Both the position numbers and the translations under genes were made by a program. From assembly GCA_016188575.1 (NCBI GenBank), contig JACPHN010000228.1:35961-99960 (forward strand): 64,000 nucleotides of DNA. The letters are read 5' to 3'. The notes under the pieces are model-generated. The model was not told where the DNA came from, made no database searches, and saw only the letters and a program-made list of their open reading frames with translations. Numbering within the stretch: position 1 is the stretch's first letter; each line of letters opens with the position of its first letter. Below are positions 4,401 to 40,894 of the stretch, piece after piece. Source of the DNA: Candidatus Schekmanbacteria bacterium. Its GTDB lineage: Bacteria; CSSED10-310; JACPHN01.

Positions 4401-7225
4401 TCGACAGCGGCGAGGTAGCCGTTCGCGGGAAGGTTCCCTGGGGAATCCCGCCACACACCAAGCAAAGTCTAGGGGCGGCACTGGGCTGGTCGGGCAGCCC
4501 CGCCGGCTCACCTCTCGATGTCGCCCCCTACCTGACGTATGAGGCCCGTACGGAGGTCGCCCGCGCCACGCTTACCAGCGCCGAGGTCGATGCTCTGCTC
4601 GCCGCCGATTCCCGCGCCCAGGCGCTCTTCGCTCACGCTCAGACCCAGGGCTACGAATACTACGATATCGCGACCAGGACGACGGCAAACGACGGCTCGG
4701 AGGTCACCCACCTCTGGCTATTCGACCCCGCCACCCGGATGCCGGCCGCGGTTACCGTGCGGACGGGCCCTGGCCTCACCGGCGCGTCGAGCATCCTCGA
4801 GACATTCGGGACCTCCACCTTCGCCCTGGCCGACACGGGCGGAGCCATGGCGCTCGACATGAACCGCAACAGCTTCCTCGGCCCAACAGGCACATGGGCG
4901 ATGGCGAACAGCCCAAGCTACGGGCAGTGCCTCGGCACCTGTATCGGCAAGCAAGTGCCAATCTGGGTAATCGGCCGCGTGTTCAAGGCCGTGGGCGCGG
5001 CGATGAATAGTTGGACCTGCGCCAAATGCGCTACCGGTGACAAGGGGTCGTGCGCCGGGTGCTTGACGCTCCTCTCCGAGAATGTTCCGTTCCTCGGGGA
5101 AGGAGTCGATATTTCCATGTGCGTGAACGACTGCCTCGAGTGCGTGACGGGAAACCCGGACAAGTGCCACCTCTGCGACAAAGATAAGCGTGGCTGTCGT
5201 CCGGCCAACCTGGTTGAGAAGTACATCATGGGCCAGGACGTGGTCATGTACGGCTACGACTGCATCAACGGCGTCTACGCCTATGGGGAAGAAGTCCAGT
5301 TCTGTCCGCTGTGCACGCACGGCCAGACGTGCAAGGCGGAGGAGTGCAGCGACGTGGCGAGCTGCTGCGACTGCCAGAAAGAGAACTGCGCGCGGCCGCG
5401 GGAGGCGCGGCCTTGTGGCCGTAACGCGGCGGCCCGAGCGCCGGCAGAGCAGTGCGATATCAACCAGGACGAGGTAGACGGCGAGGTCCAGACCGCCCAC
5501 GACCCGAACGCGAAGTCTGGGCCGTCCGGTGACGTGGTGCGCGGGCAGACGCTCAGTTATGTCATCGATTATGAGAACACCGGCTCGGGAACGGCGCAGG
5601 GCGTGTTCGTCAGCGACCAGCTCAGCGCCTATCTCGACGAGAGCTCGCTTGTCATCGAGGGCGGAGGCAGCTACGTGCCGGGGACGCGAAATATCTTCTG
5701 GAACGTCGGCGATCTCGCTCCCGGTGCTGCCGGGCAAGTGCGCTACTCGGTCCAGGTGCGCGACGATGCGGCCATCGGCGGCGTGATCGTCAATGTCGGA
5801 CGGGTGTTCTTCCCAAGCGTTCCCGAGGAGACGACCACGAACGCAGTGGTGTCGACAGTGCGGACGGTCGTGGCGGAACCGCAGCAGGTGCAGGTGGTCG
5901 AAAATACCGCTGTACCGATTACCCTCAGCGGCCGCGATCCGGCCGGCCGGGTGCTGACCTACGCGATCGTCAAGCAGCCAAGCAGCGGCAGCCTGACCGG
6001 CACACCTCCAGACGTGATCTACACGCCGGGAATCGACTACGATGGGCCGGATAGCTTCAGCTTCACTGCCGGCAACGGGCTGACGACAAGTGAGGCCGCG
6101 GCCGTCGCGATCGTTGTGACCCCGTCTTTCTCGGATCAGACGCCGCCGCACGTCGTGCGCGTCGAGCCTGCCGACGGGAGCCAGGGCGTCGCGATCACCG
6201 CCGACGCCCGCGCTGAGGTCGCACGCGTCTGCTTCGACGAGCCGCTTGACCCGCTGACCGTCACGGTCGCCAACGTCCGCCTGAGCTCCAGGGGCGAAAG
6301 CGTCGTCGTGGAGCTCGTTCACGATCAGGTGCAGAGCTGTATCGGATTGGTGCCGGCGGTGGCGCTCGCGAATGACACGACGTACGTTGCGGCTGCCGGA
6401 AAGGACCTGAAGGACACCTCCGGCAACGCCATTGAAAGCGACCGCACCTGGAGCTTCCAAACGGCTGGGCAGGGCAGCGCGAACCCGGAACCGGCGACCG
6501 TTGACTTTTGCCTGGCGGCAGTGGGGACTACTTCGGCGGCGCAGAGCGTAACCATTTCGAACGTCGGCGCCACCGACCTGGCGTTTTCGAGCGCGGCGCT
6601 GGACGGAACGGGGGCCGGGGACTTCGCAATCGTATCCGACGGCTGCAGCTCAGGGCGACTGGTGCCCGGCGGAAACTGCGCCGTCGACATTCAGTTTGCG
6701 CCGCTGTCAGCGGGCGCAAAGTCCGCGACGCTGGAGCTTCTGGCGCCGGATGCTACTGTCCACGCGGCGCTCACCGGCGTCGCAGGCCAGACCGCGTTGC
6801 GCCTTGTTGCCGACTCATACACGGTCAGCGAGGCCGGCGGGAACGTCACGCTGGAGGTCCAGCGCCTGGGAAGCACGAGCGCCGAGCTTTCGGCAAGCTA
6901 CGCAACCGCCGATGAGAGTGCCGTGGCGGGTCAGGACTACGTCGCTGCCGCTGGCACGGTGACGGTGCCGGCCGGTCAGTCGACCGGAACGATGACCGTG
7001 ACACTGCTCGACGACGCTGCCCGCGAGGCGGAAGAAGTCTTCCGTGTGGCTCTTTCCGGTGCCGAGGTTTGCGGCGGGACGGCGACCGCGGCGCGTGTCG
7101 TGATCACGGACGACCTGCCCTTGGTCCGGGTAGGAACCCTCGCCGGGTTGCTAGTCGGCCTCGGCGCCGCGGCACTCGTAGCCGCGGCCGCGCGCCGGCG
7201 GCGGTCCCAACACCGCACGCTCTGA
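1448..7225 (+). CDS. Giant secreted surface/adhesin-like protein (~1,926 aa): signal peptide, FG-GAP/VCBS repeats, two DUF11-like conserved-repeat domains, a Cys-rich insert, Ig-like region, Calx-beta domain and a C-terminal hydrophobic helix plus RRRR tail
   Basis: ATG at 1448 is preceded by an AAGGAG ribosome-binding site, and [20 protein letters not shown] is signal-peptide-like. The N-terminal half has many DxDGDG FG-GAP motifs ([32 protein letters not shown] and others). The Calx-beta-like segment is [20 protein letters not shown]...[31 protein letters not shown]. The last 35 aa are [34 protein letters not shown]. The upstream TTG at 1328 given by the ORF track is rejected as an over-extension. 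Confidence 0.8.
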
Positions 7226-7764: not shown

Positions 7765-8376
7765 TCATGAACCAAAATGCCGCTGCCATATTCTGCGCAG
7801 TGCGAATGCGCACGTTTCGAGGAGCATCGCTTCCAGCTCCGGCTCCGGCGTCATGCCGGCCTCGACGTCTCGCCTCAGCGCCGCCGTAGGGAGATCGATC
7901 AGGGCGAGCTGAATGCCCCGTACCGCAGCGCCATGCGATGCCCCCGCGAGCCGCACCGCGAACCCGTTGATCGCCTGCGCTGCGGCTTCCGTGAGCGCCG
8001 CCGCGCGCTCTCGGTAGCTCGCCGGCCAGCCGTCCGCGGCAAAATCCTCGCGGCTGTGAAGCAGCAGCAGGCGAGCTTCCCTGGGATGACCCCGGACCCA
8101 TTGACACGTGAATCGGACCGCACCCAGACCCGCCGCCACCGGGTCCTCCGCCGAGAGCTCCTGGAGAAACTGGGCTTGAAACTCCTCCACGAGGCAGAGC
8201 CACACTGCCGCCAGGATCTCGTTGCGCGAAGCATAACGGTGGTAAATGGAACCTGTCGATGCCCCTGCGCTCGCGGCGAGGGCGGCGATGGTCAGATTTT
8301 GGGGCCCGACCTCGGACGAGATCCGGGTCGCGCTCTGCAGAAGCGCTGCCTTGTCAATAAGTGCGTTGCGTCCCAT
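7765..8376 (-). CDS. TetR/AcrR family transcriptional regulator, 203 aa
   Basis: An N-terminal HTH is present (LTIAALAASAGASTGSIYHRYASRNEILAAVW) and the length is typical of TetR. I placed the start at MGRNALIDKA (cat read at 8374-8376); the 453-aa ORF-track extension is rejected. Confidence 0.85.
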   Translation of the reverse strand: MGRNALIDKAALLQSATRISSEVGPQNLTIAALAASAGASTGSIYHRYASRNEILAAVWLCLVEEFQAQFLQELSAEDPVAAGLGAVRFTCQWVRGHPREARLLLLHSREDFAADGWPASYRERAAALTEAAAQAINGFAVRLAGASHGAAVRGIQLALIDLPTAALRRDVEAGMTPEPELEAMLLETCAFALRRIWQRHFGS

Positions 8377-8393
8377 GGCGTCAATTAATTTAG

Positions 8394-8407
8394 CCGTTCT
8401 AGAATGG
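8394..8407. promoter_or_regulatory. Near-perfect 14-bp palindrome CCGTTCTAGAATGG (plus adjacent AATTAATT) in the divergent TetR / fusion-gene intergenic region; candidate TetR operator
   Basis: I read this directly in the 148-bp divergent intergenic region 8377-8524. It is AT-rich relative to the flanking sequence. Confidence 0.35.
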
Positions 8408-8524
8408 TCCGTCAAGATCGCCAGGCGCGGCGATTGCGCCCGCCGCGCCGGGCGATCGGATTGCCGGCCGCGGTCCTGGCGCGCGCTGACTCCAGCGCGC
8501 GATTCCTGGCTTTGGAGGTGCTGA

Positions 8525-10405
8525 ATGGTCGCCCCTGACCACGAACAATGCTGGCTGCGCGCCGACCCCGCGATCGTGGCAGCGCAGCTTGTTCCGGGCC
8601 ACACCCGGATCGTGTTCGCCGGCGATATCGGCACCGGAAAGACCACGCTGCTTACCGGTGTTGCGGATGCCCTGGTTGCCGAGCGAGTTCCCGTTGAGGC
8701 GATCTGCGCCGACCCCGGGCAGCCCGCATTCGGAGTCCCCGGCTGCGTGTCCATCGCCAGGCGCTGCGGCCGCTGCTGGCACGTACTCGGCATGGTCGGT
8801 CTCGGGTCGCTCGACGCGCTCCGGTTTCGTCTGCCGCTGGTGGCGGCAGTGCGTCGCTTGCCCCGCGCGCCAGAGTGCGTGCTGCTCGTGGATACGCCGG
8901 GAGCGGTGCGGGGAATGGCAGCAGCGGAGCTGCTCGCGGCGCTGGTGGCAACGGTGGAGGCCACCGCGGCGGTGGTTGTGGAGCGAAAAGACGAAGCACA
9001 GTCGGTTCTCGACGACCTCGCGGTGGCCGGCGCCACGGTGGTGCGGGTGCGTGCCGCGGCCGCAGCGCGGGGGCGGAGCAGTCGCCAGCGGCGAGCAGAC
9101 CGGACGAGTCGGTGGGAGGAGCACATCGCCGGTGCGCAGGTGCATGAGCTGCCCGTGGCGGGTCTTGCCGTTGGGGGTGCACCGCCTCCGGTCTCCGCCG
9201 CGGCGGCTTGGAGCGGTCGCCAGGCCGTGCTGGTTGGAGAAAACCGCGAGACGTTGGCGATGGGAGAGCTTTTGGGGGTGGACTCAGGCGTCGTCCGCGT
9301 GCTGGCCCCTCGCTTTGAGGTAGCTGCAGCGCGGGCGTTGATCGTCCGCGACGCTATTCGGCGCGATGGTGTACTGACGACCGCCCGTCCCCATTGCGAA
9401 GGTGGTAGGTTAGCCGCGTCCGCGCCCGCGGCGGCGGCGCGGCTCGCGGACTGGGGTGCGGGCTCCCGCCGCTCGGCCGGCCGCGCCTTCGTGGCGGAGC
9501 TGCTCGGCGGACCGTTCGATGATCCGATTCTTCATCTTCGCTGTGCGCGAAAACGGCGCAGTATCCTCTTCGATATCGGCGCGACCGACCGCCTGCCGGC
9601 GCGTGTGGCGCACCAGATCACGGATGCCTTCGTGACCCACGCGCACATCGATCACATCGCCGGACTCTTGTGGCTGATCCGGTGCCGCATTGGCTATCCG
9701 TGCTGCTGTCGGCTCTTCGGGCCGCCGGGTTTCGCCTCACACGTCGCGAATCTGGTAGCCTCGGTGCGCTGGGATCGCATCGGTGACGCTGGCCCACGCT
9801 TCGAGATCACAGAGGTCGGCGAGGAGTTGCTGTCCTGCTGGGAGCTCGTGGTCGGCAAGCAAGAGCTCGCTCTCCGCACAGATGGGGTGCGCCACGAGGG
9901 CACGCTGCTGGAGGAGCCGGGTTTTCGCGTGCGCGCGATCACGCTCGACCACGGCATCCCCGTTCTCGCCTTTGCGGCCGAGGAGAAACCTGATTTGGCA
10001 AGGAGACCACCTGGCCGGACGACCACGGACGACGACCGCGCTGGCACCGGCCGTGTCGTCTACGCCACGGACCTGGCCGATTCGCCCAGCAACCGGAGTC
10101 GGCTGATCGCGTTTGCGCGAGCGGCCCGCACCTTGTACTGTGAGGCTGCTTTTCGCGTCGCCGATGCTGCTCTTGCCCACGCCACGGGGCATCTGACCAC
10201 GCGCGCTTGTGGCGAGATCGCCAGCGCTGCCAACGTCCGTTGCCTGGTGCCCTTTCACTTCTCACGGCGCTACGAGCGAATACCGGCAGAGATCTATGCT
10301 GAGGTCCTTTCGCAATTCCCCGACACCGCCGTGCCGCAGGGCCTGGAGAGCGCGCGCGGTGCTTGCTCGCCGGCGCGTTCAGGCGCTGCCCGGCCGCATG
10401 ATTGA
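8525..10405 (+). CDS. Two-domain fusion protein (626 aa): N-terminal Clp1/Grc3-like P-loop polynucleotide-kinase-like domain and C-terminal RNase Z / RNase BN-like metallo-beta-lactamase nuclease domain
   Basis: ATG at 8525 has a GGAGG site 5 nt upstream. The N-terminal domain has Walker A FAGDIGTGKTTLL, then ICADPGQPAF (DxGQ) and LLVDTPG; this order matches Clp1-family kinases. The C-terminal domain has LFDIGATDRL...FVTHAHIDHIAGL (HxHxDH), DHGIPVLAFAAEE, VVYATDLADS and VPFHFSRRY, which matches the RNase Z HFSxRY signature. Confidence 0.75.
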   Translation: MVAPDHEQCWLRADPAIVAAQLVPGHTRIVFAGDIGTGKTTLLTGVADALVAERVPVEAICADPGQPAFGVPGCVSIARRCGRCWHVLGMVGLGSLDALRFRLPLVAAVRRLPRAPECVLLVDTPGAVRGMAAAELLAALVATVEATAAVVVERKDEAQSVLDDLAVAGATVVRVRAAAAARGRSSRQRRADRTSRWEEHIAGAQVHELPVAGLAVGGAPPPVSAAAAWSGRQAVLVGENRETLAMGELLGVDSGVVRVLAPRFEVAAARALIVRDAIRRDGVLTTARPHCEGGRLAASAPAAAARLADWGAGSRRSAGRAFVAELLGGPFDDPILHLRCARKRRSILFDIGATDRLPARVAHQITDAFVTHAHIDHIAGLLWLIRCRIGYPCCCRLFGPPGFASHVANLVASVRWDRIGDAGPRFEITEVGEELLSCWELVVGKQELALRTDGVRHEGTLLEEPGFRVRAITLDHGIPVLAFAAEEKPDLARRPPGRTTTDDDRAGTGRVVYATDLADSPSNRSRLIAFARAARTLYCEAAFRVADAALAHATGHLTTRACGEIASAANVRCLVPFHFSRRYERIPAEIYAEVLSQFPDTAVPQGLESARGACSPARSGAARPHD

Positions 10406-10435: not shown

Positions 10436-12400
10436 ATGGTAGCTCTTGCGCGCACCAACATTCCCGCCGGCGCCGAGGCACCCGCGCCGACTTCCCCGTC
10501 GCCCGGCGCCCACTCCTTCGACTTGGTGCCGCTCATTCCGCGTACGGTGCTTTTCGGTAACCCCACACAATTCCAGGCCCGCCTCGCCCCGGACGCTAGC
10601 CGCTTTTCCTTCCTCGCACCTTCGCCCGCCGGGGTGCTCAACGTCTGGTTACAGACGCTCGGCGCAGCGGATGCGGTCATGATCACCAACGATACTCACC
10701 GGGGCATCCTTCAGCACCTCTGGACGTACGACAGCCAGCACATTGTCTACTTGCAGGATGAGCTAGGCGAGGAAAACGACCACCTCTTTGTCGTGCATCT
10801 GGCCACCGGGATGGTGCGCGACTTGACGCCTTTTCCGGGAGTGCGGGCACAAAACGTCATGCTCGATCGCAAGCATCCTGGCGACCTGCTCGTGGGTCTG
10901 AACTTGCGCGACCGGCGGGTCTTTGACATGTATCGAGTCGACGTGAAGGCCGGGACTGCCGTGCTGGATACTGAAAACCCGGGCGACGTGCTCGGATGGA
11001 TGACGGATCCTGCCTTCGAGATTCGCGCCGCGCTTGCCTCCGGCTCCACCGACGGCAGTACTACGCTGCGCGTGCGCGACAACCGCGACCAACCTTGGCG
11101 CGACCTGGTGACCTGGCCGTTTGGCGAGAATGGTAACGTAGAGGATTTTGCGGCCGATGGCAGGAGCCTGTTCGTCGAGACGACCACAGACTCGGACACG
11201 GCGCGGCTGGTCGAGATCGACGCTCAAACCGGCGAGGAGCTGCGAACGCTGGCGGAAAACCCGAAAGCGGACGTTGGACGCGTGCTGGTCAATCCTGATA
11301 CGCACGTGCTCGAGGCAGTGTCGTTCGACTTTGAGAAAGAAGACTGGACGGTACTCGATGATTCCGTGCGAGCTGATTTCGCGGCGCTGTCAAAGCTCGC
11401 TCCCGACAATCTGTCGATCGTCAGCCGCGACTTGGCGGACCGGATCTGGATTGTGGCGTTCGAGCGCGACCGAGGATCGCTTCGTTACGTTCTGTATGAC
11501 CGCGACGCGAGGTCGAGCAGCGAGCTCCTGGTGAGCCAGCCGGAGCTGGAGGAGTATGCCCTCGCGCCGGTCGAGCCCGTGATCATCAAATCGCGAGACG
11601 GCCTCGATCTGGTGAGCTACTTGACCTTGCCGCCAGGCGTAGAGCCGGTACGCTTGCCGTTCGTGCTTAATCCGCATGGAGGGCCACAGTCCCGAAACAC
11701 CTGGGGCTATCGTCCCAATGTGCAGTGGCTTGCCAATCGCGGGTATGCCGTGCTGCAGGTGAACTTCCGCGGCTCGACCGGATACGGCAAATCCTTCCTC
11801 AACGCGGGGAACGGCGAATGGGGCCAGAAGATGCAGAACGACCTGACGGATGCGGTGCTGTGGGCCGTGGAGCGCGGCATCGCCGACCCGGCGCGGGTGG
11901 CAATCTTGGGTGGCTCCTACGGAGGGTATGCGGTGCTCGCCGGTCTCGCCTTTACGCCCGAGCTGTATGCTTGCGGCGTCGATATGTTCGGCCCCTCGAA
12001 CCTCCGCACGCTGCTGGCTTCGGCTCCGCCATACTGGGAGCTGGCCAAGAAAGAGTCGATGCTCCGCATCGGCGACGTGGAGCACGATGAGGCGCTGAAC
12101 CGGCGTCTGTCCCCGCTGTTTCACGTGGATGCGATCCGCGCGCCGTTGCTCATCGGCCAGGGTGCCAACGACGTGCGCGTAAAGATACACGAATCGGACC
12201 AGATCGCGGCTGCTGTGCGCCAGAAAGGCGTTGCGGTCGAGTACGTGGTCTACACCGACGAGGGACACAGTTTCGTGCGGCCGGAGAACCGATTTGATTT
12301 CTTTGGTCGCGCCGAGCGGTTTCTGGCCCAGCATCTCGGCGGTCGCTGTGAACCGTGGAGCGAGGTCCCGGGGGCGAGCGTGGAGGTGCGGCGGCTCTGA
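10436..12400 (+). CDS. S9 family serine peptidase (prolyl oligopeptidase / acylaminoacyl-peptidase-like): beta-propeller plus alpha/beta-hydrolase domain
   Basis: It shows GGSYGGY around the catalytic Ser, a C-terminal DEGHSF catalytic His region, and a long N-terminal propeller-like region. It starts 31 nt after the fusion gene. Confidence 0.85.
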   Translation: MVALARTNIPAGAEAPAPTSPSPGAHSFDLVPLIPRTVLFGNPTQFQARLAPDASRFSFLAPSPAGVLNVWLQTLGAADAVMITNDTHRGILQHLWTYDSQHIVYLQDELGEENDHLFVVHLATGMVRDLTPFPGVRAQNVMLDRKHPGDLLVGLNLRDRRVFDMYRVDVKAGTAVLDTENPGDVLGWMTDPAFEIRAALASGSTDGSTTLRVRDNRDQPWRDLVTWPFGENGNVEDFAADGRSLFVETTTDSDTARLVEIDAQTGEELRTLAENPKADVGRVLVNPDTHVLEAVSFDFEKEDWTVLDDSVRADFAALSKLAPDNLSIVSRDLADRIWIVAFERDRGSLRYVLYDRDARSSSELLVSQPELEEYALAPVEPVIIKSRDGLDLVSYLTLPPGVEPVRLPFVLNPHGGPQSRNTWGYRPNVQWLANRGYAVLQVNFRGSTGYGKSFLNAGNGEWGQKMQNDLTDAVLWAVERGIADPARVAILGGSYGGYAVLAGLAFTPELYACGVDMFGPSNLRTLLASAPPYWELAKKESMLRIGDVEHDEALNRRLSPLFHVDAIRAPLLIGQGANDVRVKIHESDQIAAAVRQKGVAVEYVVYTDEGHSFVRPENRFDFFGRAERFLAQHLGGRCEPWSEVPGASVEVRRL

Positions 12401-13528: not shown

Positions 13529-14620
13529 CTACAGCGGGGAGCGATACCGCGGCTGAGCCGGGTTATCCATCATCTCGTGCATTTCTTCCAGATACGCTTT
13601 CATCAGTTGATCGACGCCTTCGAAGTCGCCCTGCTGGTGCCAGTTGATGTTGAATCCAACCTGGTCGTTCAGCTCGGTGAGAAACCAGCGGCCACTGATG
13701 TCGCGCATTACGTCCACAGAAAAAACCCCATACGGAAAGAGCTCTCCGATCCGGTGCGCGACGGGATCGACCACGGCCCACGCGCCCGCCGGGTAGCTGT
13801 CGGGGTGGACATAGATCATGCCATGGTCTACGGTTTTTACGTAGGTCTGGATGAAAGAGACCCGGCCATGGTCCTTGATGGCAAACACGAAGCGAGCGTC
13901 GTGGCGTAGCCCGGCCAGCCCGATTTCCGGTATTCCTTCGTAGGTGTGCACCAGCGTCTGGATCACGTAGGGAAGGCGCGCAAGTTGCCCGAGGATGTGG
14001 CGAACAAATCCTGGGTCGTCGATCCGCTGGCCCCACCAATGGCGAAGCTCCAACCCTCGCGGCTGCCGGGTCACCATGAAAATTCCGCGGCTTTCCCAGC
14101 CGTGATCCGGCTTCAGCAGAGCCGCTTCGTGATGCTCGGCATAGGTTTCGTCCATGAGGTCAAAGAATGCCGAGACCTGCTCTTCAACCGGGCCTGACGC
14201 GGGATCAATGCGCCGGGTCAACGCGTGATAGCGCCGGAACGCCTCGTAAGACTTCCATTTCGAACCCACGAGCCGGCTCAAGCCGACGTGACCGAAGATT
14301 GGCAGCCCCAGCTCGATGATTCTGTCGATGACGGCGCGAAAATGCGGCTCACCCTCGTCGAGCTTGTCAAAAACGAAGGTGGCCTCGATGGGCTCTGCCA
14401 CCGGCGCCCAACGCCAGTTGCGCGGGACCCAATAGCCGCTCACCGTGCCGTCTCCTGCGAAGTCGTACGAAGAGCAAAACGCCATGCTTCGTCCCCCGGC
14501 ATTCGCCAGGCTGTGGAAATGCCCGTACGCGCGATTCAGATCGTCGTTGTCACCGTATGGCATGATCCCGGAGCGAATGCTGGGCAGGTCGGAATTGAGC
14601 ATGATCGGGCACTTGCGCAT
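13529..14620 (-). CDS. ATP-grasp-fold enzyme-like protein (TTL/RimK-style), ~363 aa (tentative)
   Basis: ATP-grasp-like features are present: RGIFMV, YVIQTLVHTY...HDARFVFAI, and a C-terminal WFLTELNDQVGFN that resembles the hhhEhN...P motif. I chose MRKCPIM as the start because a GGAGG site sits 6 nt upstream; the ORF-track start at 14692 is an alternative. Confidence 0.55.
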   Translation of the reverse strand: MRKCPIMLNSDLPSIRSGIMPYGDNDDLNRAYGHFHSLANAGGRSMAFCSSYDFAGDGTVSGYWVPRNWRWAPVAEPIEATFVFDKLDEGEPHFRAVIDRIIELGLPIFGHVGLSRLVGSKWKSYEAFRRYHALTRRIDPASGPVEEQVSAFFDLMDETYAEHHEAALLKPDHGWESRGIFMVTRQPRGLELRHWWGQRIDDPGFVRHILGQLARLPYVIQTLVHTYEGIPEIGLAGLRHDARFVFAIKDHGRVSFIQTYVKTVDHGMIYVHPDSYPAGAWAVVDPVAHRIGELFPYGVFSVDVMRDISGRWFLTELNDQVGFNINWHQQGDFEGVDQLMKAYLEEMHEMMDNPAQPRYRSPL

Positions 14621-14927
14621 GAGCCCCTCCAAGCGGCAATGGGATTGAGGCGCGGCGATGAGCGGGAACTGGTTCAGCGCCGCTGGCGTCAAACCCGTGC
14701 GGTTATATCATGGCTGAGGCGGTTTGTGCGAGCACCTCGGAGCCCCGTCGCGAATCTCGTGACACCCCGGGATCACCGCCTGTTCGACGATTCCTGAGTG
14801 AAACGCGGGAAGTAGCGGGCGGATTCATGGGAGGTTGGATTTGTGCCTCTCGCTGCACCGGGAATGAGGGAAGATGCCGCCGGCAACGGCAGCGAGACCA
14901 CGACGGCCCCTGGAGCGACAAGGACTT

Positions 14928-15932
14928 TCATTGTTTTCTTCCCCGTCGCGGGATCACCCGGCTTAGCACCAGCAGCAACAAGGCCAGCCCGCCAGGCGAC
15001 ACCCCAGGCACGGGTCGGAGGAATCCCTGCACCACCGCGATCTGGTTACCGCCGCCAAACGTGGAAAAGAGAAAATCTCCCGTCACGGGATCGATCGTCG
15101 CGCCTTCCGCCCCCGTGAGATCGCTCATGAATGTGCGTCGCGTATTCACCAGGGGGTTGCCGTTGCCGTCGACTTCGTAGGCCCCCACTGCCCCAGCCGT
15201 GTACTCGGAGATGAGCATGCTATTGACGGCGAAGAGCGCGTTTCCGGCGCGGATGTAGACAAACCCCTCCGGTCCTCCGGAAACAGCCTGGTTCCCGGCG
15301 ACCGTCGGATCCAGATCGACCATGGTGTAGGGACCGATGTTGAACGTACCGCTGCCGTCAGGGCTGAACGTCGCAGCGTACCACTGACCGGCCTCCCAGC
15401 ACATAACCTTCACCCGACCGGCGCCACCAAAGCCGGAGGGCACGAAGTTGACCGAGCTTACCGAGCTCGCGGCGCCTTCCGGACCAGCCGCGAGTTGGTC
15501 CTCATCGTCTGTGGTCCCGGGCTTTACCTGTCCGATCTCGTTCTTCGGCCACCGCCCCAGAAACAGGACACCGCCGGGGCCAAACGCCACACCTCCGTCG
15601 TTGTAGTCTCCGATCCCCGAGGCCGCGCCGCCATACTGCAACGCCGTACCGGAAAAGCCAGTGATGTGGCTGTCCGTTCCGCGCACCACAGCGATCGTGT
15701 AGAGCCTACCGGAAGAAGAGTTTGCGTGTCCTCCGATGAGAATCGTATTCTCATCGAGAAACGTCAGTCCGCCGTACTGGGTAGGGAGTCCTGGCACTGA
15801 TCCGATGCTCGTCACGCTGTAGTAGTTGGCGTAGTACGGGTCAATCGTGAGCGCCGGCGCCGCCGGTGCATGGAAGAGGAAGGCAACTGTTGACAACCCT
15901 GCGAAACTTCTCAGATACGCTCGACACTTCAT
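14928..15932 (-). CDS. Secreted protein with a PEP-CTERM-like C-terminal sorting tail (~334 aa)
   Basis: MKCRAYLRSFAGLSTVAFLFHAPAAPA looks like a signal peptide, with a GGGAG site 7 nt upstream. The C-terminus PVPGVSPGGLALLLLVLSRVIPRRGRKQ has a hydrophobic helix followed by a basic tail. Confidence 0.65.
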   Translation of the reverse strand: MKCRAYLRSFAGLSTVAFLFHAPAAPALTIDPYYANYYSVTSIGSVPGLPTQYGGLTFLDENTILIGGHANSSSGRLYTIAVVRGTDSHITGFSGTALQYGGAASGIGDYNDGGVAFGPGGVLFLGRWPKNEIGQVKPGTTDDEDQLAAGPEGAASSVSSVNFVPSGFGGAGRVKVMCWEAGQWYAATFSPDGSGTFNIGPYTMVDLDPTVAGNQAVSGGPEGFVYIRAGNALFAVNSMLISEYTAGAVGAYEVDGNGNPLVNTRRTFMSDLTGAEGATIDPVTGDFLFSTFGGGNQIAVVQGFLRPVPGVSPGGLALLLLVLSRVIPRRGRKQ

Positions 15933-26293: not shown

Positions 26294-26465
26294 ACTTCTT
26301 TTGTCGGCATGCGTAAAGACCGGCCCCGTCTTTGGGGCGCATTTGGTCTCGCTGGAGACTTCGCCCGAGCGTGCCAGGCACCTCTCAACGCTGCTGCAAG
26401 CGCTGTGGTAGTACTGTCGAAATAGTGTTGAAGCTGGCCGCGAAACGCATCGGGAGGTCTTGACC

Positions 26466-27221
26466 ATGACGAGGGCGAGCTGTGTGTTGGGGCGAGCTCT
26501 GTTTCTACTCGCGGTTACCATCGGCGCGGCTTCCGCGGAGAGCGAGCGCGTTCGGGTTCATCTGGTAGACGGGACGGAGAATCTCTGCCACTTGTTGGCA
26601 ATCACGCCCCACGCAATCTCTCTGCTTGAGGCGGGGACGGAGCGGCAGTTCGCGTTGGCCAGCGTGGAGTGGATCGACTTTGGCAATCACGCCGCTGAAA
26701 TGGAGCTGAGCGACAAGGCGAGGGGCGCAGATCCGCACGCCGTGGTGATGACCTCAGGGGCAGCCTACAATGGGGCGATCGTCGGTCTGTCCGACGAGAA
26801 CGTGGAGCTGCGGACGGCGGGCGGCCAAAGAAAGCTGATTTCGGTAGCCCGTGTGGCGCGACTCTATTTTCAGCGACCCGAGTGGTATCCCGAGACAAGT
26901 CGGCTGCACGTGGCGCTGAGTCGGCTGCTGGACGCGCTTCACGAGCTGCGCCGCGCGCTCGATAGTAGCCAGGGAGGCCCCGCGCTCGCGCACACCGCGC
27001 GGGAGTTGCTCGACGCCGCCGAGGCGTTGCAAGCCCAAGCTCACGAGGGGGCTTCGGTGCATGACCTCCGAGCCGGTCTCACCACGCTTGCGGATCGATA
27101 CGACGCGCTACAAGAGGATTTCGAGGCATCCGCGGCGCTCCGGCCGCAGGGCGCCGTGGCGCGGAGCTGGCACCGCCTCGACGCCGCCATGGCCGAGACG
27201 CGTCGGGCCGTGCCGCGCTAG
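26466..27221 (+). CDS. Secreted hypothetical protein (~251 aa) with a signal peptide
   Basis: MTRASCVLGRALFLLAVTIGAASAESE is signal-peptide-like, and a GGGAGG site sits 8 nt upstream of the ATG. I recognised no domain. Confidence 0.55.
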   Translation: MTRASCVLGRALFLLAVTIGAASAESERVRVHLVDGTENLCHLLAITPHAISLLEAGTERQFALASVEWIDFGNHAAEMELSDKARGADPHAVVMTSGAAYNGAIVGLSDENVELRTAGGQRKLISVARVARLYFQRPEWYPETSRLHVALSRLLDALHELRRALDSSQGGPALAHTARELLDAAEALQAQAHEGASVHDLRAGLTTLADRYDALQEDFEASAALRPQGAVARSWHRLDAAMAETRRAVPR

Positions 27222-29978: not shown

Positions 29979-29995
29979 TGGCGCGTTTCTTGCAT
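29979..29995 (+). promoter_or_regulatory. Sigma-54 (-24/-12) promoter TGGCGCgtttcTTGCAT upstream of the lipoprotein gene
   Basis: GG and GC are at the canonical 12-bp spacing (consensus TGGCAC-N5-TTGCW). It lies 53 nt upstream of the 30048 start codon, and an NtrC-family activator gene lies immediately downstream. Confidence 0.55.
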
Positions 29996-30047: not shown

Positions 30048-32363
30048 ATGATGCGCGGACGCATTCTCACAACATTTCTCGCACTATCTCTCATCGCGGC
30101 AGGGTGTACCAATGTGAAAATCGATTCACCCAAGAACGGTGGGCTCTATCCCGATGCTCCGGATTTCAAAGTAAGCTACAACAGTGAGCCGTCAGGCCTC
30201 ACCCTCAAGCTCAACGGCACGGATGTTACCAGTTTCTTCGCCGTGGGCTCCGCCGCCGCGACCGCGTCCGGCGACGCACTGGCCGCCTATGTCCTTCCCG
30301 GCGACAACCAGTTCGAGGTTACCCGGCCGTCTTTCGTGAGCCCCGTCCAGTTTCACTTCGATGTCGTCGGCCCTACCGTCAAGGTGACATCCGTTGACGA
30401 GGCCTCACCTCTCGTCGTTCACGGACGCGTCGAGGACCCGGCCGGTGTGGCGCGCTTGAGCTGCAATGGTGCCGCGGTCACCGTTTCCGGAGGCAGTTTC
30501 ACGGCCACCGTAGCCAACGCCGCCTTCGTCGGCTTCGAGGCGGAAGACGGCTTCGGACACGTCTCCACCACCACCTTTGCGCGGCCCGGCACTGCCCTCG
30601 GCTCCAGCATGGGCGCCCGCCTGAACAAGAGTGGCATCGCCTTCCTGGTGGCGGAAATCTCGAATCTCCTGGGCAAGCTCGACTTCGGCGAGCTGATCAA
30701 GGAGCTCAACCCGCTCTTCGACAAGAGCATCGGTGTGGCGTCCGCTCGCGTGGACGCAACGGATGTCGAGATCTCCGCACCCAAGGTCAGCCTGGCCGTC
30801 TCGCCATCCAACGATGGGACCTTCGATGTCGGAGTTGACATCTCGGACCTCGTCGTCTACGTCCACGCTACCGGAACCGTCATTGGCATTCCGTGGGAAA
30901 CCGACGGAGTCGTCTGGGCGGACCTGGTCAGCTTTGACGGTAAGGCGAAGGTCACCGTCACCAACCAGAAAATCGGTGTGGCGCTGAGCAATCTGTCGCT
31001 GGTTCTGAATGGGTTTGGATTCGACATCAGCGGCTTCCCCGATGTTCTGGAAGGTCTCTTCTTCGACCTGGTCGGCGATCTGCTTGAAGGCTTCATCAGG
31101 GACGAGCTCGCTACACGGATTCCCCCGTATATCGAAGAGTTTCTCAAGAATATCCCCTCTGACTTCCAGATCGATCTTGACGGCCACGCCTTCAGGATCG
31201 CGGCACTGCCCCAGGCGCTGACAACCAAGGACGAAGGCATGTCGGTCCACCTCGCCGCCTCCGTCAGCACCCTTACCCCAGTCGATGTGCCACCAGCCCT
31301 GGGGTCGCTCTACGTTGCTGGCGCGACGCCTGATCTGGGGACCAAGACGCCCGGAGGCAAGGCCTTCGACGCCGGCGCTGTCGTCTCGGGAAACCTGATC
31401 AATCAGGCACTCCTCGAGGGATACCGCGCCGGCCTTACACATGTCGGGCTTGACGAGCAGACCAATCCGCGAATTTCCCCGGCAGGTCTGCGCGGGATCG
31501 GCATGGAGATCCAGGGACTCTTTGATGGAGATGACGTGCGCTTCAACGTGCTGCCATCGAGCCCGCCGTATGCCGGCATTCGCGGCACCCAGACCGCGCT
31601 CGCTGCTCTGGCGATGGACGAGTTTACCTTCGAGCTCGAGCTGCGCAAGCAGGGTACCGACGACTGGCTGCTGGTCTTCGGGGCCGTTCTCGATATGAAC
31701 GTCCCCTTCCTCATCGGCGTCAGCGACAACAACACGGTCAAGGTCACGTTTGAAGAGGTGCCGACCGTGAAGATCCGCGACATCGACGACAGGGGCGTCA
31801 TTGACCTCGACGAGAAGCTCGTGCAAGCGATCATTGATTGGCTCTTGCCGCTCGCCCTGCCGTACCTCGCTGACATCGTCGAGGAAATCAAGATCCCGAG
31901 TTACGAAGGCTATGGCGTCTGGTTGCACGACTTGTTTGCCACCGGCTCCTCGACAGACTACATCGCTTTTGCCGGTAATCTGGTCAAGGATTCGACCCGA
32001 ACCCGCGCCGCGCGTCCGGAAACGTATGTGCTCGTGGAGGATGTTGCGTACACCTCGCGGTCCTTCGCGACCGAGGTCGCACCGGATTCCGCGCTGGATG
32101 GCAAGCTGGTGACCGTGTATGTCGCCGGCGATGTCCCCGGTGCCTCGGTGCTGCAGTACTCGTATCGGCTTGACAGCGGAGAGTGGTCGGTCTGGCGCGA
32201 GCGAACCGAGATCCACCTGCGTCATTTGCTCGCCGGCGATCACGTCTTGGAAGTGCGCAGCCGCACCCCGCAACTTGCGGTCGACCCCACGCCCGCACGG
32301 GTCGTGTTCCGGACTGGACCCGAGTCGTACAGGTTGACGTTGGGGCGACCTTTCGCCCGGTAG
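30048..32363 (+). CDS. Large lipoprotein (771 aa) with a lipobox signal peptide and a C-terminal Y_Y_Y-like domain
   Basis: MMRGRILTTFLALSLIAAGC is a signal peptide ending in the lipobox LIAAGC. The C-terminus VLQYSYRLDSGEWSVWRERTEIHLRHLLAGDHVLEVRSR resembles the two-component-regulator Y_Y_Y domain. The gene is preceded by a sigma-54 promoter. Confidence 0.8.
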   Translation: MMRGRILTTFLALSLIAAGCTNVKIDSPKNGGLYPDAPDFKVSYNSEPSGLTLKLNGTDVTSFFAVGSAAATASGDALAAYVLPGDNQFEVTRPSFVSPVQFHFDVVGPTVKVTSVDEASPLVVHGRVEDPAGVARLSCNGAAVTVSGGSFTATVANAAFVGFEAEDGFGHVSTTTFARPGTALGSSMGARLNKSGIAFLVAEISNLLGKLDFGELIKELNPLFDKSIGVASARVDATDVEISAPKVSLAVSPSNDGTFDVGVDISDLVVYVHATGTVIGIPWETDGVVWADLVSFDGKAKVTVTNQKIGVALSNLSLVLNGFGFDISGFPDVLEGLFFDLVGDLLEGFIRDELATRIPPYIEEFLKNIPSDFQIDLDGHAFRIAALPQALTTKDEGMSVHLAASVSTLTPVDVPPALGSLYVAGATPDLGTKTPGGKAFDAGAVVSGNLINQALLEGYRAGLTHVGLDEQTNPRISPAGLRGIGMEIQGLFDGDDVRFNVLPSSPPYAGIRGTQTALAALAMDEFTFELELRKQGTDDWLLVFGAVLDMNVPFLIGVSDNNTVKVTFEEVPTVKIRDIDDRGVIDLDEKLVQAIIDWLLPLALPYLADIVEEIKIPSYEGYGVWLHDLFATGSSTDYIAFAGNLVKDSTRTRAARPETYVLVEDVAYTSRSFATEVAPDSALDGKLVTVYVAGDVPGASVLQYSYRLDSGEWSVWRERTEIHLRHLLAGDHVLEVRSRTPQLAVDPTPARVVFRTGPESYRLTLGRPFAR

Positions 32364-32481: not shown

Positions 32482-33873
32482 ATGAGCGAATCCGCCACCA
32501 TCGTCGTCGTGGATGACGAGCCACTCATGCTGAAGTTCTTGGTCAAGAGTCTTCGCAATGAAGGCCATGACGTTTTCGCGGCGACGAACGGGGAAGAGGC
32601 CCTCGCGCTCGTCGATAGCCACAACCCTGACGCGCTCATCGCCGATCTCAAGATGCCGGGAATGACCGGCATCGAGCTTCTGGAGAAGGCGAAGTCCCGG
32701 CGGGCCGGGCTGGATGTCATTGTCATGACCGGCTTCGCGACCGTCGACAGTGCCGTCGAAGCGATGAAAAAAGGCGCGGCAGACTATATTACCAAGCCGT
32801 TTTCGCCTGATGCCATCAAGCTCGCAGTGGCGAAGCTACTTGCTCACCGGCGCGTGCTGCGCGAGAACGACGCTCTCAAAGACCAGCTCGCCGAGCGGTT
32901 CGGCTTTGACAAGCTCATAGGCCAAAGCCGAAAAATGCAGGACGTTTACCGGATGGTGCAGACCGTTGCAGGCGCGACCGTGGTCGTGCTCATCGAGGGC
33001 GAAAGCGGGACGGGAAAAGAGTTGGTGGCGCGGGCAATCCATGCCAACTCGGCGCGCTCCGGTGGCCCCTTTGTCGCGGTCAACTGCAGCGCCCTGGTGC
33101 AGGGCTTGTTCGAGAGTGAGATGTTCGGGCATGAACGCGGCGCATTTACCGGCGCCGTGCAAACCAGACTTGGCCGCTTCGAGCTGGCGAACGGCGGCAC
33201 GATTTTTCTCGATGAGGTCAGCGAGCTGGCACAGGCAGCGCAAGTCAAGCTGCTGCGAGTCCTCCAGGAACGCCAGGTCGAGCGCGTGGGTGGCGCTCGG
33301 CTTCGTGACGTCGACGTCCGGGTAATCTCCGCCAGTAACCGGAACGTGCGCAAGTGCGTGGAGTCCGGGTCGTTTCGGGAGGATCTCTATTATCGTCTCA
33401 ATGTTGTCCGCATCGAGCTTCCACCCTTGCGGGAACGTCTGGACGATCTCCCGATTCTTGTCGAGCACTTCCTCGCGTCCGAAGCGCGTCGCCGCGGCGC
33501 CACGCCGAAGAGGCTCAGCTCGCGGGCTCTCGAAGCGCTGCTGCGCCACTCCTGGCCGGGGAACGTGCGCGAGCTGCAAAACATCATCGCCGGGGCCGTC
33601 GCGTTGTCGCCGTCCGCCGTGATCGTCCCCGAGCATTTTCCCCCGGGCGCGCTGCGCCCCGATGCCGATCCCGTCGGGGCGGACGCCCTACCTCTGCCCG
33701 GACAAATCTCCGGGACGCTCGTGGACGCTCTGGACGCCATCGAAAAGAGGCTGATCGCGCGGGCACTGGAACGTTGCCACTGGGTGCAAGTAGCGGCCGC
33801 CAAGGAGCTCGGAATCAAACGCGCAACGCTGCAGTACAAGATGGCCAAGTATGGCCTGCTTGGCAAGGCGTAA
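32482..33873 (+). CDS. Sigma-54-dependent response regulator (NtrC family): receiver, AAA+ sigma-54 activator and HTH domains
   Basis: IVVVDDEPLMLKFL...D54 region is the receiver domain. GESGTGKELVARAIH is Walker A and GAFTGA is the sigma-54 contact motif. A C-terminal Fis-type HTH is present. Confidence 0.9.
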   Translation: MSESATIVVVDDEPLMLKFLVKSLRNEGHDVFAATNGEEALALVDSHNPDALIADLKMPGMTGIELLEKAKSRRAGLDVIVMTGFATVDSAVEAMKKGAADYITKPFSPDAIKLAVAKLLAHRRVLRENDALKDQLAERFGFDKLIGQSRKMQDVYRMVQTVAGATVVVLIEGESGTGKELVARAIHANSARSGGPFVAVNCSALVQGLFESEMFGHERGAFTGAVQTRLGRFELANGGTIFLDEVSELAQAAQVKLLRVLQERQVERVGGARLRDVDVRVISASNRNVRKCVESGSFREDLYYRLNVVRIELPPLRERLDDLPILVEHFLASEARRRGATPKRLSSRALEALLRHSWPGNVRELQNIIAGAVALSPSAVIVPEHFPPGALRPDADPVGADALPLPGQISGTLVDALDAIEKRLIARALERCHWVQVAAAKELGIKRATLQYKMAKYGLLGKA

Positions 33874-37887: not shown

Positions 37888-38461
37888 GCTGCCGGATGCA
37901 ACTGGCGCACCAAATAGGTAGCGCGGCATCTCTTGCCCTCGAGCACAGGTGTACATTCTCGACATCGCGCCCACGCAGGTTTCTGGTGCAACGGCGGCGC
38001 GGTCAGCTTGTACCGACGAGCAAAAGGCTTTCCTCCGTCGCTTCCGTCATACCCACCCTCTATCACTCGTGCGCCGAGCTGACAAGTCCGCAGCGCCTAT
38101 CCCATTTTATCCCGTGCCCAAACGATTCCAGTCGCCGGGCCCGTGGGCGCGCAAACAAGATCATGGTATTCCCCCCTCGGGTATCCCGTGGCCGACTGAC
38201 TGTGGGCCGCGCGCGCTCTGCCAGGTTTTCGGCAGCGCGTGTCCCGCGCGACGCGGCCTGAAGAACCCGACGTTGTCCACATCGGCTGACGTTCCTGGCA
38301 CAGCGCGTGACTTCTCGTGCACAATTCTATTTGTCCGTCGTGCGGGCTCCTGGGGAAGAAGCGCTTATTGCCGCGTTCGCGCGCGATCAGAATGGATGGC
38401 GCGATTTTTGCTAGATGCAAGGTGCCACGCCTGACCACCGTCCTCTGCGTTGGAGTATACC

Positions 38462-40894
38462 ATGTCCCGCACCGCTCGCTACCTCAGCAGCATCGCCTGT
38501 GCGCCAGTCCTCCCCATCGTCGCCATCGCGGCCGCACTGCTGGTGTCCTCGCCGCCCCTGCTGCATGCCGCTGCGGCCGACAACAACGTTGAGTGGGACG
38601 GACTCTTCAGCGATCAGTCTGCGAACTTCATGACCCCAACCGAACCCAGCGCGAGTGACAACATAACGGTTCGGCTCCGGGCGTTTCGCAACGACCTGAC
38701 CGCGGCTGCGGTCCGCTACTGGGACGGTGCCGAGCGCTTTGTGAGCATGACAAAGACGTCAACGGACACCGTCTACGACTACTACAGTGGCGTGATCCCG
38801 GCGCACAGCGAGACGATCTGGTACCGGTTCCGTATTACGGACGGTAGCAAGAGCGCCTGGTACAATCCGCTCGGCCCCTCGGATGCCGAGCCGTCGTCGC
38901 GCGATTTCCAAATCATCCCGGGCCTCAGCACTCCCGACTGGCTCAAGAATGGCGTGATCTATCAGATCTTCGTAGACCGTTTCTTCGACGGCGACTCCGG
39001 CAATAATGTCGGGGCGAACGAGTATTCGCTCGGTGTTCACTGGGACGGCGACCACCAGGGAGATCCGGCGCGGGCGTACACGCACTCGAGCTGGTCTCAC
39101 CAGCCGGATAATGCCCTGAAGCACCTGGCAAATGCCGGCACAGATCCCGGCGCACCGCAGGACGAAGGTCTCGGCCGCATGACCTATGCCGCCAATGTCG
39201 ACTTCTTCGGCGGCGACCTCGCCGGCGTCGCGGCGAAGCTCGACTATCTGCAGGACCTCGGCGTCACCGTGCTGTACCTCAATCCGATTTTTGCCTCGCC
39301 CAGCAATCACAAGTACGACACCATGGATTTCCGCATCGTCGATCCCCACTTTGGAGGCAACGCCGCGCTCCACGACCTGATCGACGCAGCGCATGGACGT
39401 GGCATGAAAGTCGTCATCGACGGCGTCTTCAACCACACCGGGCACTGGCACCGCTGGCTGAATCGGCGTGATGGCGATGAGGCGCTCGCCACGGGCGACT
39501 ATGCCCCCTACGCGGAGGACGGTGCCTTCCAGGCGGTCGAGACTGGGCAGTTTTCCGTCAGCAGTGACGGCGTCGCCGCTTCCACGGTCAATGCCGCCGT
39601 GGACCGCTATACCTTCCGGGACATGGAGACCTATACCGCGGCCTGTCAGAGCCCGCTACCCAAGAATGGCGTCATCGAGGCTGACGAATACTTCTCGTGG
39701 TGGGGATTTTCGTCACTTCCCAAGATCAACTATGACGCAGACTCAAACGGCGATGGCATGGAGGAGCTCCGATACTGGCTCTACGGCGGTCCGAATGGCA
39801 TCGGCAACCTTGGCGAATCTGCCTCCGGAACCGTGATCGCGGGGAGCATCGCCGAGGAAGTCGGCACCACCAAGCCGATTGCGCGGCTATGGATCGAGGA
39901 CTTCGGCGTCGACGGTTGGCGGCTCGACGTTCCGAACGACGCGGGCGGGCGCAGCGCGGGGTACCCCACGTCGAACGACCACGCGATTTGGAAAGGCTTC
40001 CGCAAGGCAGTCAGGAACGCGCGCCTGGACACGTACATCTTTGGCGAGCTGTGGACAGAAAGCGATGTCGCTCCCTACCTCGACAACGGTGACGAGTTCG
40101 ACGCCGTCATGAACTACCACGGCTTCGCCGATCCCGTATCGCTGTGGGTCAATGGTCAAAACACGGCAGCCGAAAAGACCACTACCGACCTCGGCCAGGC
40201 GGACATCATGACTGTCGACCAGTTGGACTCGTGGCTTTCAGGAACGCGGGCGAGCTTCGCAGGTCCAATCGTCTATGCGATGGACAATCTGCTCGATAGC
40301 CACGATTCTCCGCGGTTCCTGCGCCGGACCAAGGCGCACAAGATTCTCAAGGGATGGAAAGAGGGCTCATGCGGATTCTATTCCAACCCCGACTTCTATG
40401 ATGGCAGTGGAGAAGACGTGTGGAAGCTGAAGCTGGCACTGTTCCTACAAATGAGCTACGTTGGCGCGCCTTCGCTGTTCTATGGCGATGAAGTCGGGCT
40501 TTCCGGAGCCGACGATCCCTCGTGCCGGCAGCCCTTCAACTGGAACTATGGCCAGCAAAGCTGGCGCGTGGAGCTTCGCGATCTGGTCAAGAAGCTTATT
40601 GCCGCTCGCAAGCAATATTCGGCGCTGCGAACGGGCTCGATGATGACCTTGTATCGGCACAACGACAATCAGATATACGCGTTCGGCCGCTGGGACAGCG
40701 GTGCTCGCATCACGGTTGTGCTGAATAACTCGAGCTACGCGCAAGACGTGTCGGTTCCGGTGTGGAAACTCGCCATTCCCGACGGCAACAACGTGCTGGA
40801 AGATGCGCTAACGGGGGCGCGGCTGACGGTCGCCTCCGGACATGCTACGGTGCATGTCGATGGCCACTTTGGAGCGCTGCTGGTAAACCGCTGA
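38462..40894 (+). CDS. GH13 alpha-amylase-family glycoside hydrolase (neopullulanase/cyclomaltodextrinase-like) with an N-terminal accessory domain
   Basis: The conserved GH13 regions are present: DGVFNH (I), GWRLDVPND (II), FGELW (III) and LLDSHD (IV). The start MSRTARYL has a GGAG site upstream. Confidence 0.9.
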   Translation: MSRTARYLSSIACAPVLPIVAIAAALLVSSPPLLHAAAADNNVEWDGLFSDQSANFMTPTEPSASDNITVRLRAFRNDLTAAAVRYWDGAERFVSMTKTSTDTVYDYYSGVIPAHSETIWYRFRITDGSKSAWYNPLGPSDAEPSSRDFQIIPGLSTPDWLKNGVIYQIFVDRFFDGDSGNNVGANEYSLGVHWDGDHQGDPARAYTHSSWSHQPDNALKHLANAGTDPGAPQDEGLGRMTYAANVDFFGGDLAGVAAKLDYLQDLGVTVLYLNPIFASPSNHKYDTMDFRIVDPHFGGNAALHDLIDAAHGRGMKVVIDGVFNHTGHWHRWLNRRDGDEALATGDYAPYAEDGAFQAVETGQFSVSSDGVAASTVNAAVDRYTFRDMETYTAACQSPLPKNGVIEADEYFSWWGFSSLPKINYDADSNGDGMEELRYWLYGGPNGIGNLGESASGTVIAGSIAEEVGTTKPIARLWIEDFGVDGWRLDVPNDAGGRSAGYPTSNDHAIWKGFRKAVRNARLDTYIFGELWTESDVAPYLDNGDEFDAVMNYHGFADPVSLWVNGQNTAAEKTTTDLGQADIMTVDQLDSWLSGTRASFAGPIVYAMDNLLDSHDSPRFLRRTKAHKILKGWKEGSCGFYSNPDFYDGSGEDVWKLKLALFLQMSYVGAPSLFYGDEVGLSGADDPSCRQPFNWNYGQQSWRVELRDLVKKLIAARKQYSALRTGSMMTLYRHNDNQIYAFGRWDSGARITVVLNNSSYAQDVSVPVWKLAIPDGNNVLEDALTGARLTVASGHATVHVDGHFGALLVNR

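Follow-up and report, generated by a model that had tools for sequence, protein, structure and literature searches.

Three secreted proteins encoded in a 64,000-nucleotide stretch of DNA (64% GC; hereafter the window), part of a 113,162-bp contig from a metagenome-assembled genome (MAG) that carries the NCBI label Candidatus Schekmanbacteria, end in the same kind of tripartite C-terminal tail, in which a short segment containing Val-Pro or Leu-Pro ([VL]P) is followed by a hydrophobic core and a cluster of basic residues. The carriers, here called P1, P2 and P3, are respectively a giant adhesin-like protein, a six-bladed beta-propeller protein and a BNR/Sortilin-Vps10-like beta-propeller protein. 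Two paralogues encoded elsewhere in the same MAG, P0270 (of P1) and P0122 (of P3), bear the same kind of tail, and the genome thus holds at least five such tails in three independent families. The reading that we favour, with confidence no better than even, is that all five are degenerate or variant PEP-CTERM-type sorting/anchoring domains, in which the Pro-Glu-Pro motif has decayed to [VL]-P.

P1 (MBI2571334.1; 1448..7225, plus strand; 1925 amino acids (aa), the start being taken from the database copy P0174) opens with a signal peptide recognised by inspection (1448..~1535, plus strand). Searches with Pfam and NCBIfam found in it FG-GAP/VCBS (twelve copies), DUF11, a Cys-rich region, DUF7619, Big_9, Big_5, a choice-of-anchor D domain (59 bits, cutoff 45) and Calx-beta. 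Its tail (7115..7222, plus strand) comprises the segment LPLVR (7115..7129), the hydrophobic core (7130..7192) and the basic cluster (7193..7222). P2 (HYV63_30415; 14928..15932, minus strand; 334 aa) ends in VPGVSPGG-LALLLLVLSRVIP-RRGRKQ (14931..15011, minus strand), and P3 (HYV63_30560; 58895..61060, minus strand; 721 aa), which is named from weak domain matches, ends in VPVDTS-LIFASLALLGTSL-RLRTERRRRER (58898..58987, minus strand). All three C-termini translate exactly as they had been quoted in an earlier, sequence-only reading of this DNA, and the interval given there for P1 (7100..7225) covers its tail. The N-termini of the three proteins are plausible Sec signal peptides by inspection only, without SignalP (P2, MKCRAYLRSFAGLSTVAFLFHAPAAPA; P3, MKIWWLPAVLAIGGIAAIA). 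Judged from their Pfam and NCBIfam domains, the three carriers are mutually unrelated.

The five tails share a layout rather than a length. Their cores, of 13–21 aa, end 6–15 aa before the C-terminus and are followed by the basic clusters RRRR, RRGRK, RRRRER, RRGGRR or RRARR. P1 and P0270 have cores of 20–21 aa, and P2, P3 and P0122 of 13–15 aa, that of P2 being broken by an Arg. The ~18–20 aa attributed to all three window proteins by the sequence-only reading is therefore approached in P1 alone (~21 aa), the stretches of P2 and P3 reaching ~13–15 aa.

This layout is rare among the sequences that we scanned. A filter requiring a hydrophobic 13–15-mer near the protein end, followed by at least two to three Arg or Lys, matched only P1, P2 and P3 among the 152 six-frame stop-to-stop segments of at least 150 aa in the window; applied to 527 six-frame open reading frames (ORFs) of at least 60 aa from the window and five other contigs of the organism, it retrieved these three tails, the two paralogue tails and one spurious ORF. 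The tails are therefore not a by-product of GC-rich ORF ends. Moreover, their architecture is kept between paralogues that are only 34% (P3/P0122) and 53% (P1/P0270) identical, and so they cannot be put down to read-through in GC-rich DNA. A chance origin, as Ala/Leu/Arg-rich ORF ends or mis-called stops, would draw on the composition of the window, since Arg, Ala and Leu codons are GC-rich, but we regard it as excluded: apart from the one spurious ORF, the tail occurs only on real genes with signal peptides and a high GC content at third codon positions (GC3), and its architecture is kept in the P2 family as well as in the paralogues. Nor is the tail general to the large secreted proteins of the window. 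An 889-aa FG-GAP/beta-helix protein (56154..58823) lacks it, and a supposed fourth tail, on an 876-aa HEYGH and FG-GAP protein whose gene runs off the window (61438..), was rejected when the full-length copy, P0328, proved to end without one.

The descent of one tail can be followed. P2 has no Pfam match and 1401 homologues, and belongs to a widespread family whose members normally end in PEP-CTERM. Its AlphaFold2 model (pLDDT, the predicted local distance difference test, 79.5) consists of a six-bladed beta-propeller, a signal-peptide helix and a single C-terminal helix, and Foldseek matches it to PQQ-dehydrogenase, paraoxonase and NHL propellers. An exact PEP lies within the last 45 residues of 108 of the 119 best P2 homologues, many of which match PF07589 or are named 'PEP-CTERM sorting domain-containing protein'; the remaining 11 carry natural variants (VASP, VPAP, VAEP, VPLPA and others). 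One homologue, P0019, is a VPLPA-CTERM protein (27.4 bits). In the full-length alignment the residues G-V-S-P-G-G of P2 stand under [G]-V-P-E-P-[GSA]-[TS], with 'VSP' under 'PEP' and only the second Pro kept. On the evidence of this alignment the P2 tail is demonstrably a degenerate PEP-CTERM, the positional homologue of the canonical [VI]PEP[GSA][TS]-transmembrane-RRR domain. The gene was probably acquired by horizontal transfer from Betaproteobacteria-like donors as a canonical PEP-CTERM gene, its motif changing afterwards; we consider this acquisition likely because the nearest relatives of P2 are ~70% identical proteins of Burkholderiales and Rhodocyclaceae, and because its GC content is 61.8%, against 67–68% for P1 and P3. 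No other Schekmanbacteria homologue of P2 was found.

The families of P1 and P3 add two further comparisons. In other lineages, the relatives of the C-terminal module of P1 carry Cys-rich MYXO-CTERM-type, GlyGly-type or type IX secretion system (T9SS)-like ends, the MYXO and GlyGly tails among them being confirmed by hidden Markov models (HMMs). Within the MAG, P0270, which is 53% identical to P1 and matches it in architecture, ends in DDDVPAV-ILLTPVGLAAAGGALLLL-RRARR.., parallel to TDDLPLV... in P1. An in-frame stop interrupts a second P1-like gene, whose C-terminal half is P0270, and hence the tail of P0270 is not independent of that of P1. The sole close relative of P3 among 5.8 billion proteins is its paralogue P0122 (HYV63_10405; 34% identity), and BLASTP aligns the two through the tail, with EVPVDTS against KVPAATG-FAVLSLIAGIAFAA-RRGGRR. 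P3 relatives are otherwise mostly tail-less, and one has an LPXTG-like end.

Two observations on the P1 family stand apart from the tails. The second P1-like giant gene (locus L030, 2..4138, in the Logan contig SRR12113422_803812) is divided by its in-frame stop (…CWGCY*GNP…) into parts of 634+ aa (P0322) and 740 aa (P0270), which may reflect pseudogenization, recoding or a faulty assembly. The Cys-rich stretch inside P1 (~4800..5400, plus strand; ~170 aa), which lies between the DUF11 region and DUF7619, has many CxxC-like spacings, is kept in P0270 and matches no Pfam family.

The motif and geometry of the tails lean towards PEP-CTERM in part. As the sequence-only reading had remarked, the canonical PEP tripeptide is absent, and this holds for all five tails, which read VPVD, VPAA, VPAV, LPLV or VSP. 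However, [VL]P is present in every one of them, that is, in three independent families, and is kept across the paralogues at 34% and 53% identity; in the proteins of the window [VL]P occurs at 0.9% of positions, giving a chance of ~6% per tail that it falls within the 7 residues before the core. The residue preceding PEP is V or I in 99 of the 108 canonical tails from the P2 family, the positions following it being [GSA][TS], so that a [VI]P likewise starts the canonical domain. From PEP to the basic cluster these 108 tails count 17 residues (interquartile range 16–17), or ~19 from the first Pro, and the five tails count 17–24 residues from the Pro of [VL]P to theirs. The PEP-CTERM core has been described as 14 aa long (PMC1569441), which the cores of P2, P3 and P0122 resemble, and these are short for a permanent transmembrane anchor. 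The choice-of-anchor D domain of P1 speaks for the same side, as does the presence beside P1 of a GT4 glycosyltransferase gene related to the XrtA-system family TIGR03087, at the start of a glycosyltransferase cluster. Finally, of the eight attributes of a tripartite C-terminal sorting signal set out in the preprint by Haft (2023; 10.1101/2023.06.07.544157), seven are found here: C-terminal location, multiple copies per genome, a hydrophobic core, a basic cluster, signal peptides (by inspection), unrelated carriers, and homologues without the signal or with a different one.

A considerable body of results nevertheless weighs against the reading of the tails as PEP-CTERM-type domains, the most direct coming from the models themselves. 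Every curated sorting-domain HMM of NCBIfam and Pfam, run on the full proteins and on the isolated tails, stayed below its cutoff on all five. The best matches of P1 were to CoaP_CTERM (15.1 bits, cutoff 35), MYXO-CTERM (10.5, cutoff 20) and PEP-CTERM (TIGR02595; 8.6, cutoff 16), together with the Pfam family Gram_pos_anchor (15, cutoff 20), matched by P1 only; the best of P0122 was to IPTL-CTERM (13.7 bits, cutoff 20.5). The tails of P2, P3 and P0270 matched no sorting-domain model, and TIGR02595 gave nothing at E <= 10 for P2, P3, P0122 or P0270. The check with TIGR02595 and TIGR03901 that had been proposed beforehand was accordingly negative for both. These failures are not an artefact of short sequences, since isolated control tails score well in the same scan: canonical PEP tails reached 29–31 bits and a VPAP variant 28.9 bits with TIGR02595 (cutoff 16), a VASP variant falling just below at 14.7; a VPLPA variant reached 27.4 bits with TIGR03370 (cutoff 25.35), a Cys-type tail 25.3 with MYXO-CTERM (cutoff 20) and 22.6 with GC_trans_RRR (cutoff 15.85), and a GlyGly-type tail 17.2 with TIGR03501 (cutoff 15.5). 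An HMM that we built from the 108 canonical tails, too, gave P2 (1.8 bits), P3 (0.2) and P0122 (1.6) scores below those of their own shuffles; P1 scored 9.2 bits with it, against a maximum of 6.8 for its shuffles. To the same side belongs the diversity of the tails. The PEP-CTERM domains of one species are usually strongly alike (PMC1569441), whereas these five are mutually dissimilar: the residues after VP differ in every tail, the spacing from VP to the core varies from 2 to 6, and the eighth attribute of Haft, a signature motif with three or more near-invariant residues and the one attribute that implies a dedicated enzyme, is lacking, only [VL]P being common to all.

The search for an enzyme and for its usual surroundings points largely the same way. 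Pfam found no exosortase, archaeosortase, rhombosortase/rhomboid, sortase or CPBP gene among the ~38 genes of the window, and a six-frame phmmer search of the window and five Logan contigs (~25 kb), with two genuine exosortases from other loci as queries, found no exosortase (best E 0.17). A scan of unannotated ORFs for transmembrane segments, combined with Pfam, left an MprF-like flippase as the sole polytopic membrane protein of the window. Divergent from P1 lies a gene for a GT4 glycosyltransferase (MBI2571333.1; 16..1194, minus strand). Of the NCBIfam models the product is closest to TIGR03087, 'PEP-CTERM/XrtA system glycosyltransferase', scoring 259.5 bits (E 5.8e-77) where the cutoff is 316.65. 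The next gene to its left, beyond the window edge, is also GT4-like, from which we take it that a glycosyltransferase cluster of the exopolysaccharide (EPS) type continues there, and exosortase genes usually sit in such clusters (PMC1569441). The link of this GT4 to the tails is circumstantial. As a pointer to the enzyme the co-location is weak, for of the 27 loci that contain a distant relative of the GT4, just two have an exosortase within 10 kb. There is likewise no sigma-54 promoter signal upstream of the P1, P2 and P3 genes, and promoter-like sites in the window stand at chance level (78 against 67 expected). PEP_resp_reg scores below cutoff on a sigma-54 response regulator of the window, to which AtoC and NtrC are the better matches; a link to PrsR/PrsK/PrsT was rejected, the matches of regulator and histidine kinase being non-specific and the promoter pattern being at chance. 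Our reading of the literature found no paper linking Schekmanbacteria with exosortase or PEP-CTERM.

Compared with the known systems, the tails show both similarities and differences. (i) With PEP-CTERM/exosortase (EpsH, XrtA; TIGR02595, PF07589; PMC1569441) they share the C-terminal position, the accompanying signal peptide, the presence of several unrelated carriers in one genome, the start of the domain at [VI]P, about 17–19 residues between the first Pro and the Arg cluster and a core of ~14 aa; the P2 tail is a direct homologue, and a TIGR03087-like glycosyltransferase with its cluster adjoins P1. They depart from it in that the near-invariant Glu-Pro is missing from all five, TIGR02595 and PF07589 score below cutoff or find no match, the tails are not alike, and the window and five contigs offer neither an exosortase nor, upstream of the carriers, sigma-54 promoters. 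(ii) The named variants VPLPA-CTERM/XrtD (TIGR03370, TIGR04152), VPDSG-CTERM/XrtC (TIGR03778, TIGR04151) and IPTL-CTERM (TIGR04174) keep V/I-P and change the residues that follow, and so provide a precedent for exosortase signals without PEP. In those systems, however, one replacement motif extends across all the substrates of a genome, whereas here the residues after VP differ from tail to tail and no model is matched. (iii) MYXO-CTERM/myxosortase and GlyGly-CTERM/rhombosortase (10.1101/2023.06.07.544157; PMC3237569) have the same tripartite design, and relatives of the P1 module bear their signals in the same slot, but an invariant Cys and a Gly-Gly signature are both lacking from the five tails, the models score below cutoff and the window encodes no CPBP or rhomboid protein.

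That the tails are substrates of another known system, be it MYXO-CTERM/myxosortase, GlyGly-CTERM/rhombosortase, LPXTG/sortase or one of the named PEP-CTERM variants (VPLPA, VPDSG, IPTL, PVV, CoaP), seems to us very improbable. What can be said for it are the sub-threshold matches of P1 (CoaP_CTERM, MYXO-CTERM, Gram_pos_anchor) and of P0122 (IPTL_CTERM) and the GG just before the P2 core. Yet no model reached its cutoff, although tails of genuine MYXO, GlyGly and VPLPA type did so in the same scan; no tail contains a Cys, which MYXO-CTERM and related signals require as an invariant residue, and P1 stays below the MYXO-CTERM threshold (TIGR03901/TIGR03382); GlyGly-CTERM (TIGR03501) found no match, there is no LPXTG motif (TIGR01167, PF00746), and rhomboid, CPBP and sortase genes are all absent from the window. 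The HMM tests and the lack of Cys essentially exclude these systems. The main rival, which we nevertheless hold to be somewhat improbable, sees in the tails nothing but stop-transfer anchors that undergo no common processing and tether periplasmic or surface domains to the cytoplasmic membrane, the Arg cluster reflecting the positive-inside rule; P2 would then retain the relic of a PEP-CTERM that decayed once the gene had moved horizontally into a genome lacking the cognate exosortase, and P1 and P3 would carry independent anchors. The findings set out above as counting against PEP-CTERM-type domains speak for such anchors, namely the failure of all sorting-domain HMMs where controls succeed, scores no better than those of shuffled tails, the dissimilarity of tails with no common motif of at least three residues, and the lack of a sorting enzyme in the 64-kb window and five contigs; so do the horizontal origin suggested for P2 (~70% identity to Burkholderiales/Rhodocyclaceae proteins, GC 61.8%) and the cores of P1 and P0270, which at 20–21 aa suffice for a stable transmembrane helix. 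Other features fit anchors poorly. The cores of P2, P3 and P0122, that of P2 with its Arg, have a length typical of PEP-CTERM but on the short side for a permanent anchor; relatives of P2 and of the P1 module bear genuine cleavable sorting signals in exactly the same slot; all five tails, those of diverged paralogues included, retain the juxtamembrane [VL]P; and retention in the periplasm of a putative diderm would make little functional sense for giant FG-GAP/Calx-beta adhesin-like proteins.

It is these features that incline us, if narrowly, towards degenerate or variant PEP-CTERM-type domains. The sequence-only reading had gone further in one respect, taking the tails for the hallmark of a sorting system and suggesting that they form a variant class. 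The first suggestion retains its tripartite layout, the homology of P2 to PEP-CTERM and the genuine sorting signals of the P1-module relatives, and is opposed by the HMM scores; a coherent class has not been demonstrated, as [VL]P is all that the tails have in common. A bolder version, in which the lineage uses a PEP-less 'VP-only' signal read by a divergent exosortase-family enzyme or by a non-homologous intramembrane one, with acquired substrates such as P2 being re-tuned from VPEP to V-S-P, strikes us as unlikely; if true, it would amount to a new signal/enzyme pair outside every current HMM.

If the tails are still processed, as we suppose, the route might resemble the one proposed by Haft in 2006. 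In that scheme the N-terminal signal peptide would direct each protein to Sec for export until the C-terminal hydrophobic segment halted translocation and left the protein lodged in the inner membrane; the Arg cluster would remain cytoplasmic, and the [VL]P site would face the periplasm. Cleavage near this site would then fall to an intramembrane enzyme, of the exosortase family or analogous to it, whose gene would lie elsewhere in the genome, and the cleaved protein would be handed on to the cell surface or the exopolysaccharide layer. One candidate for a Pro-specific processing enzyme in the window, an S9 prolyl-oligopeptidase (10436..12400), was rejected because it has no signal peptide.

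Which proteins a bacterium displays on its surface or in its biofilm matrix can be predicted from C-terminal sorting tags, and new pairs of signal and enzyme are still emerging, lineage by lineage. If PEP-less tails such as these are processed, annotation based on HMMs misses the surface proteome of the lineage, the Prokaryotic Genome Annotation Pipeline (PGAP) giving 'hypothetical' or repeat-domain names, and P2 shows a horizontally acquired substrate adapting to a new sorting enzyme; if they only anchor, P2 documents the decay of a sorting signal after transfer. In both cases the gain is incremental, since neither the architecture nor the logic behind it is new: this is at most a modest variant of a known theme, and not a demonstrated new system.

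Several other observations concern the host and its neighbouring genes. The Candidatus Schekmanbacteria label of the MAG may be loose: the GC content of the window is to be set beside the 38–48% that the named Schekmanbacteria genomes show by their very names, and its gene content (a Ser/Thr kinase with AAA and TPR domains, sigma-54 activators and many FG-GAP proteins) looks Myxococcota- or deltaproteobacteria-like. Two sigma-54 activators are encoded in the window (32482..33873 and 50060..51898), and two promoter-like sites with one mismatch were noted, one (29979..29993, plus strand; TGGCGCGTTTCTTGC) just upstream of the gene for a 771-aa lipoprotein with no family match (30048..32363) and the other (38397..38411, plus strand; TGGCGCGATTTTTGC) just upstream of an alpha-amylase gene (38450..40894). 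Outside this genome, in a Candidatus Eiseniibacteriota contig (JBQTGV010000209.1; locus L003, 3871..6826), one of the closest relatives of the GT4 (35% identity) is directly followed by an exosortase, which scores 178 bits with TIGR02602 and 168 bits, below the model cutoff, as XrtA-like; the ORF has an unexplained N-terminal extension of ~345 aa.

Among the remaining genes, 8525..10405 (plus strand) encodes a 626-aa fusion of a Clp1-type polynucleotide-kinase P-loop domain with a metallo-beta-lactamase-fold domain, an unusual architecture; an antisense ORF (7765..9126, minus strand) overlaps it, and the one part of this ORF that looks real is its last ~190 aa, a TetR-family regulator. The 876-aa secreted protein at the right edge (61438..>64000, plus strand) has a metalloprotease-like region with HEYGH (HExxH) at its N-terminus, together with six or more integrin-type FG-GAP repeats; a paralogue in this organism, P0329, is 69% identical to it. 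Three ORFs (13529..14692, minus strand; 48173..49987, plus strand; 26460..27221, plus strand) have coding-like GC3 and no Pfam or NCBIfam match, and the two of them that measure 604 aa and 253 aa have apparent signal peptides.

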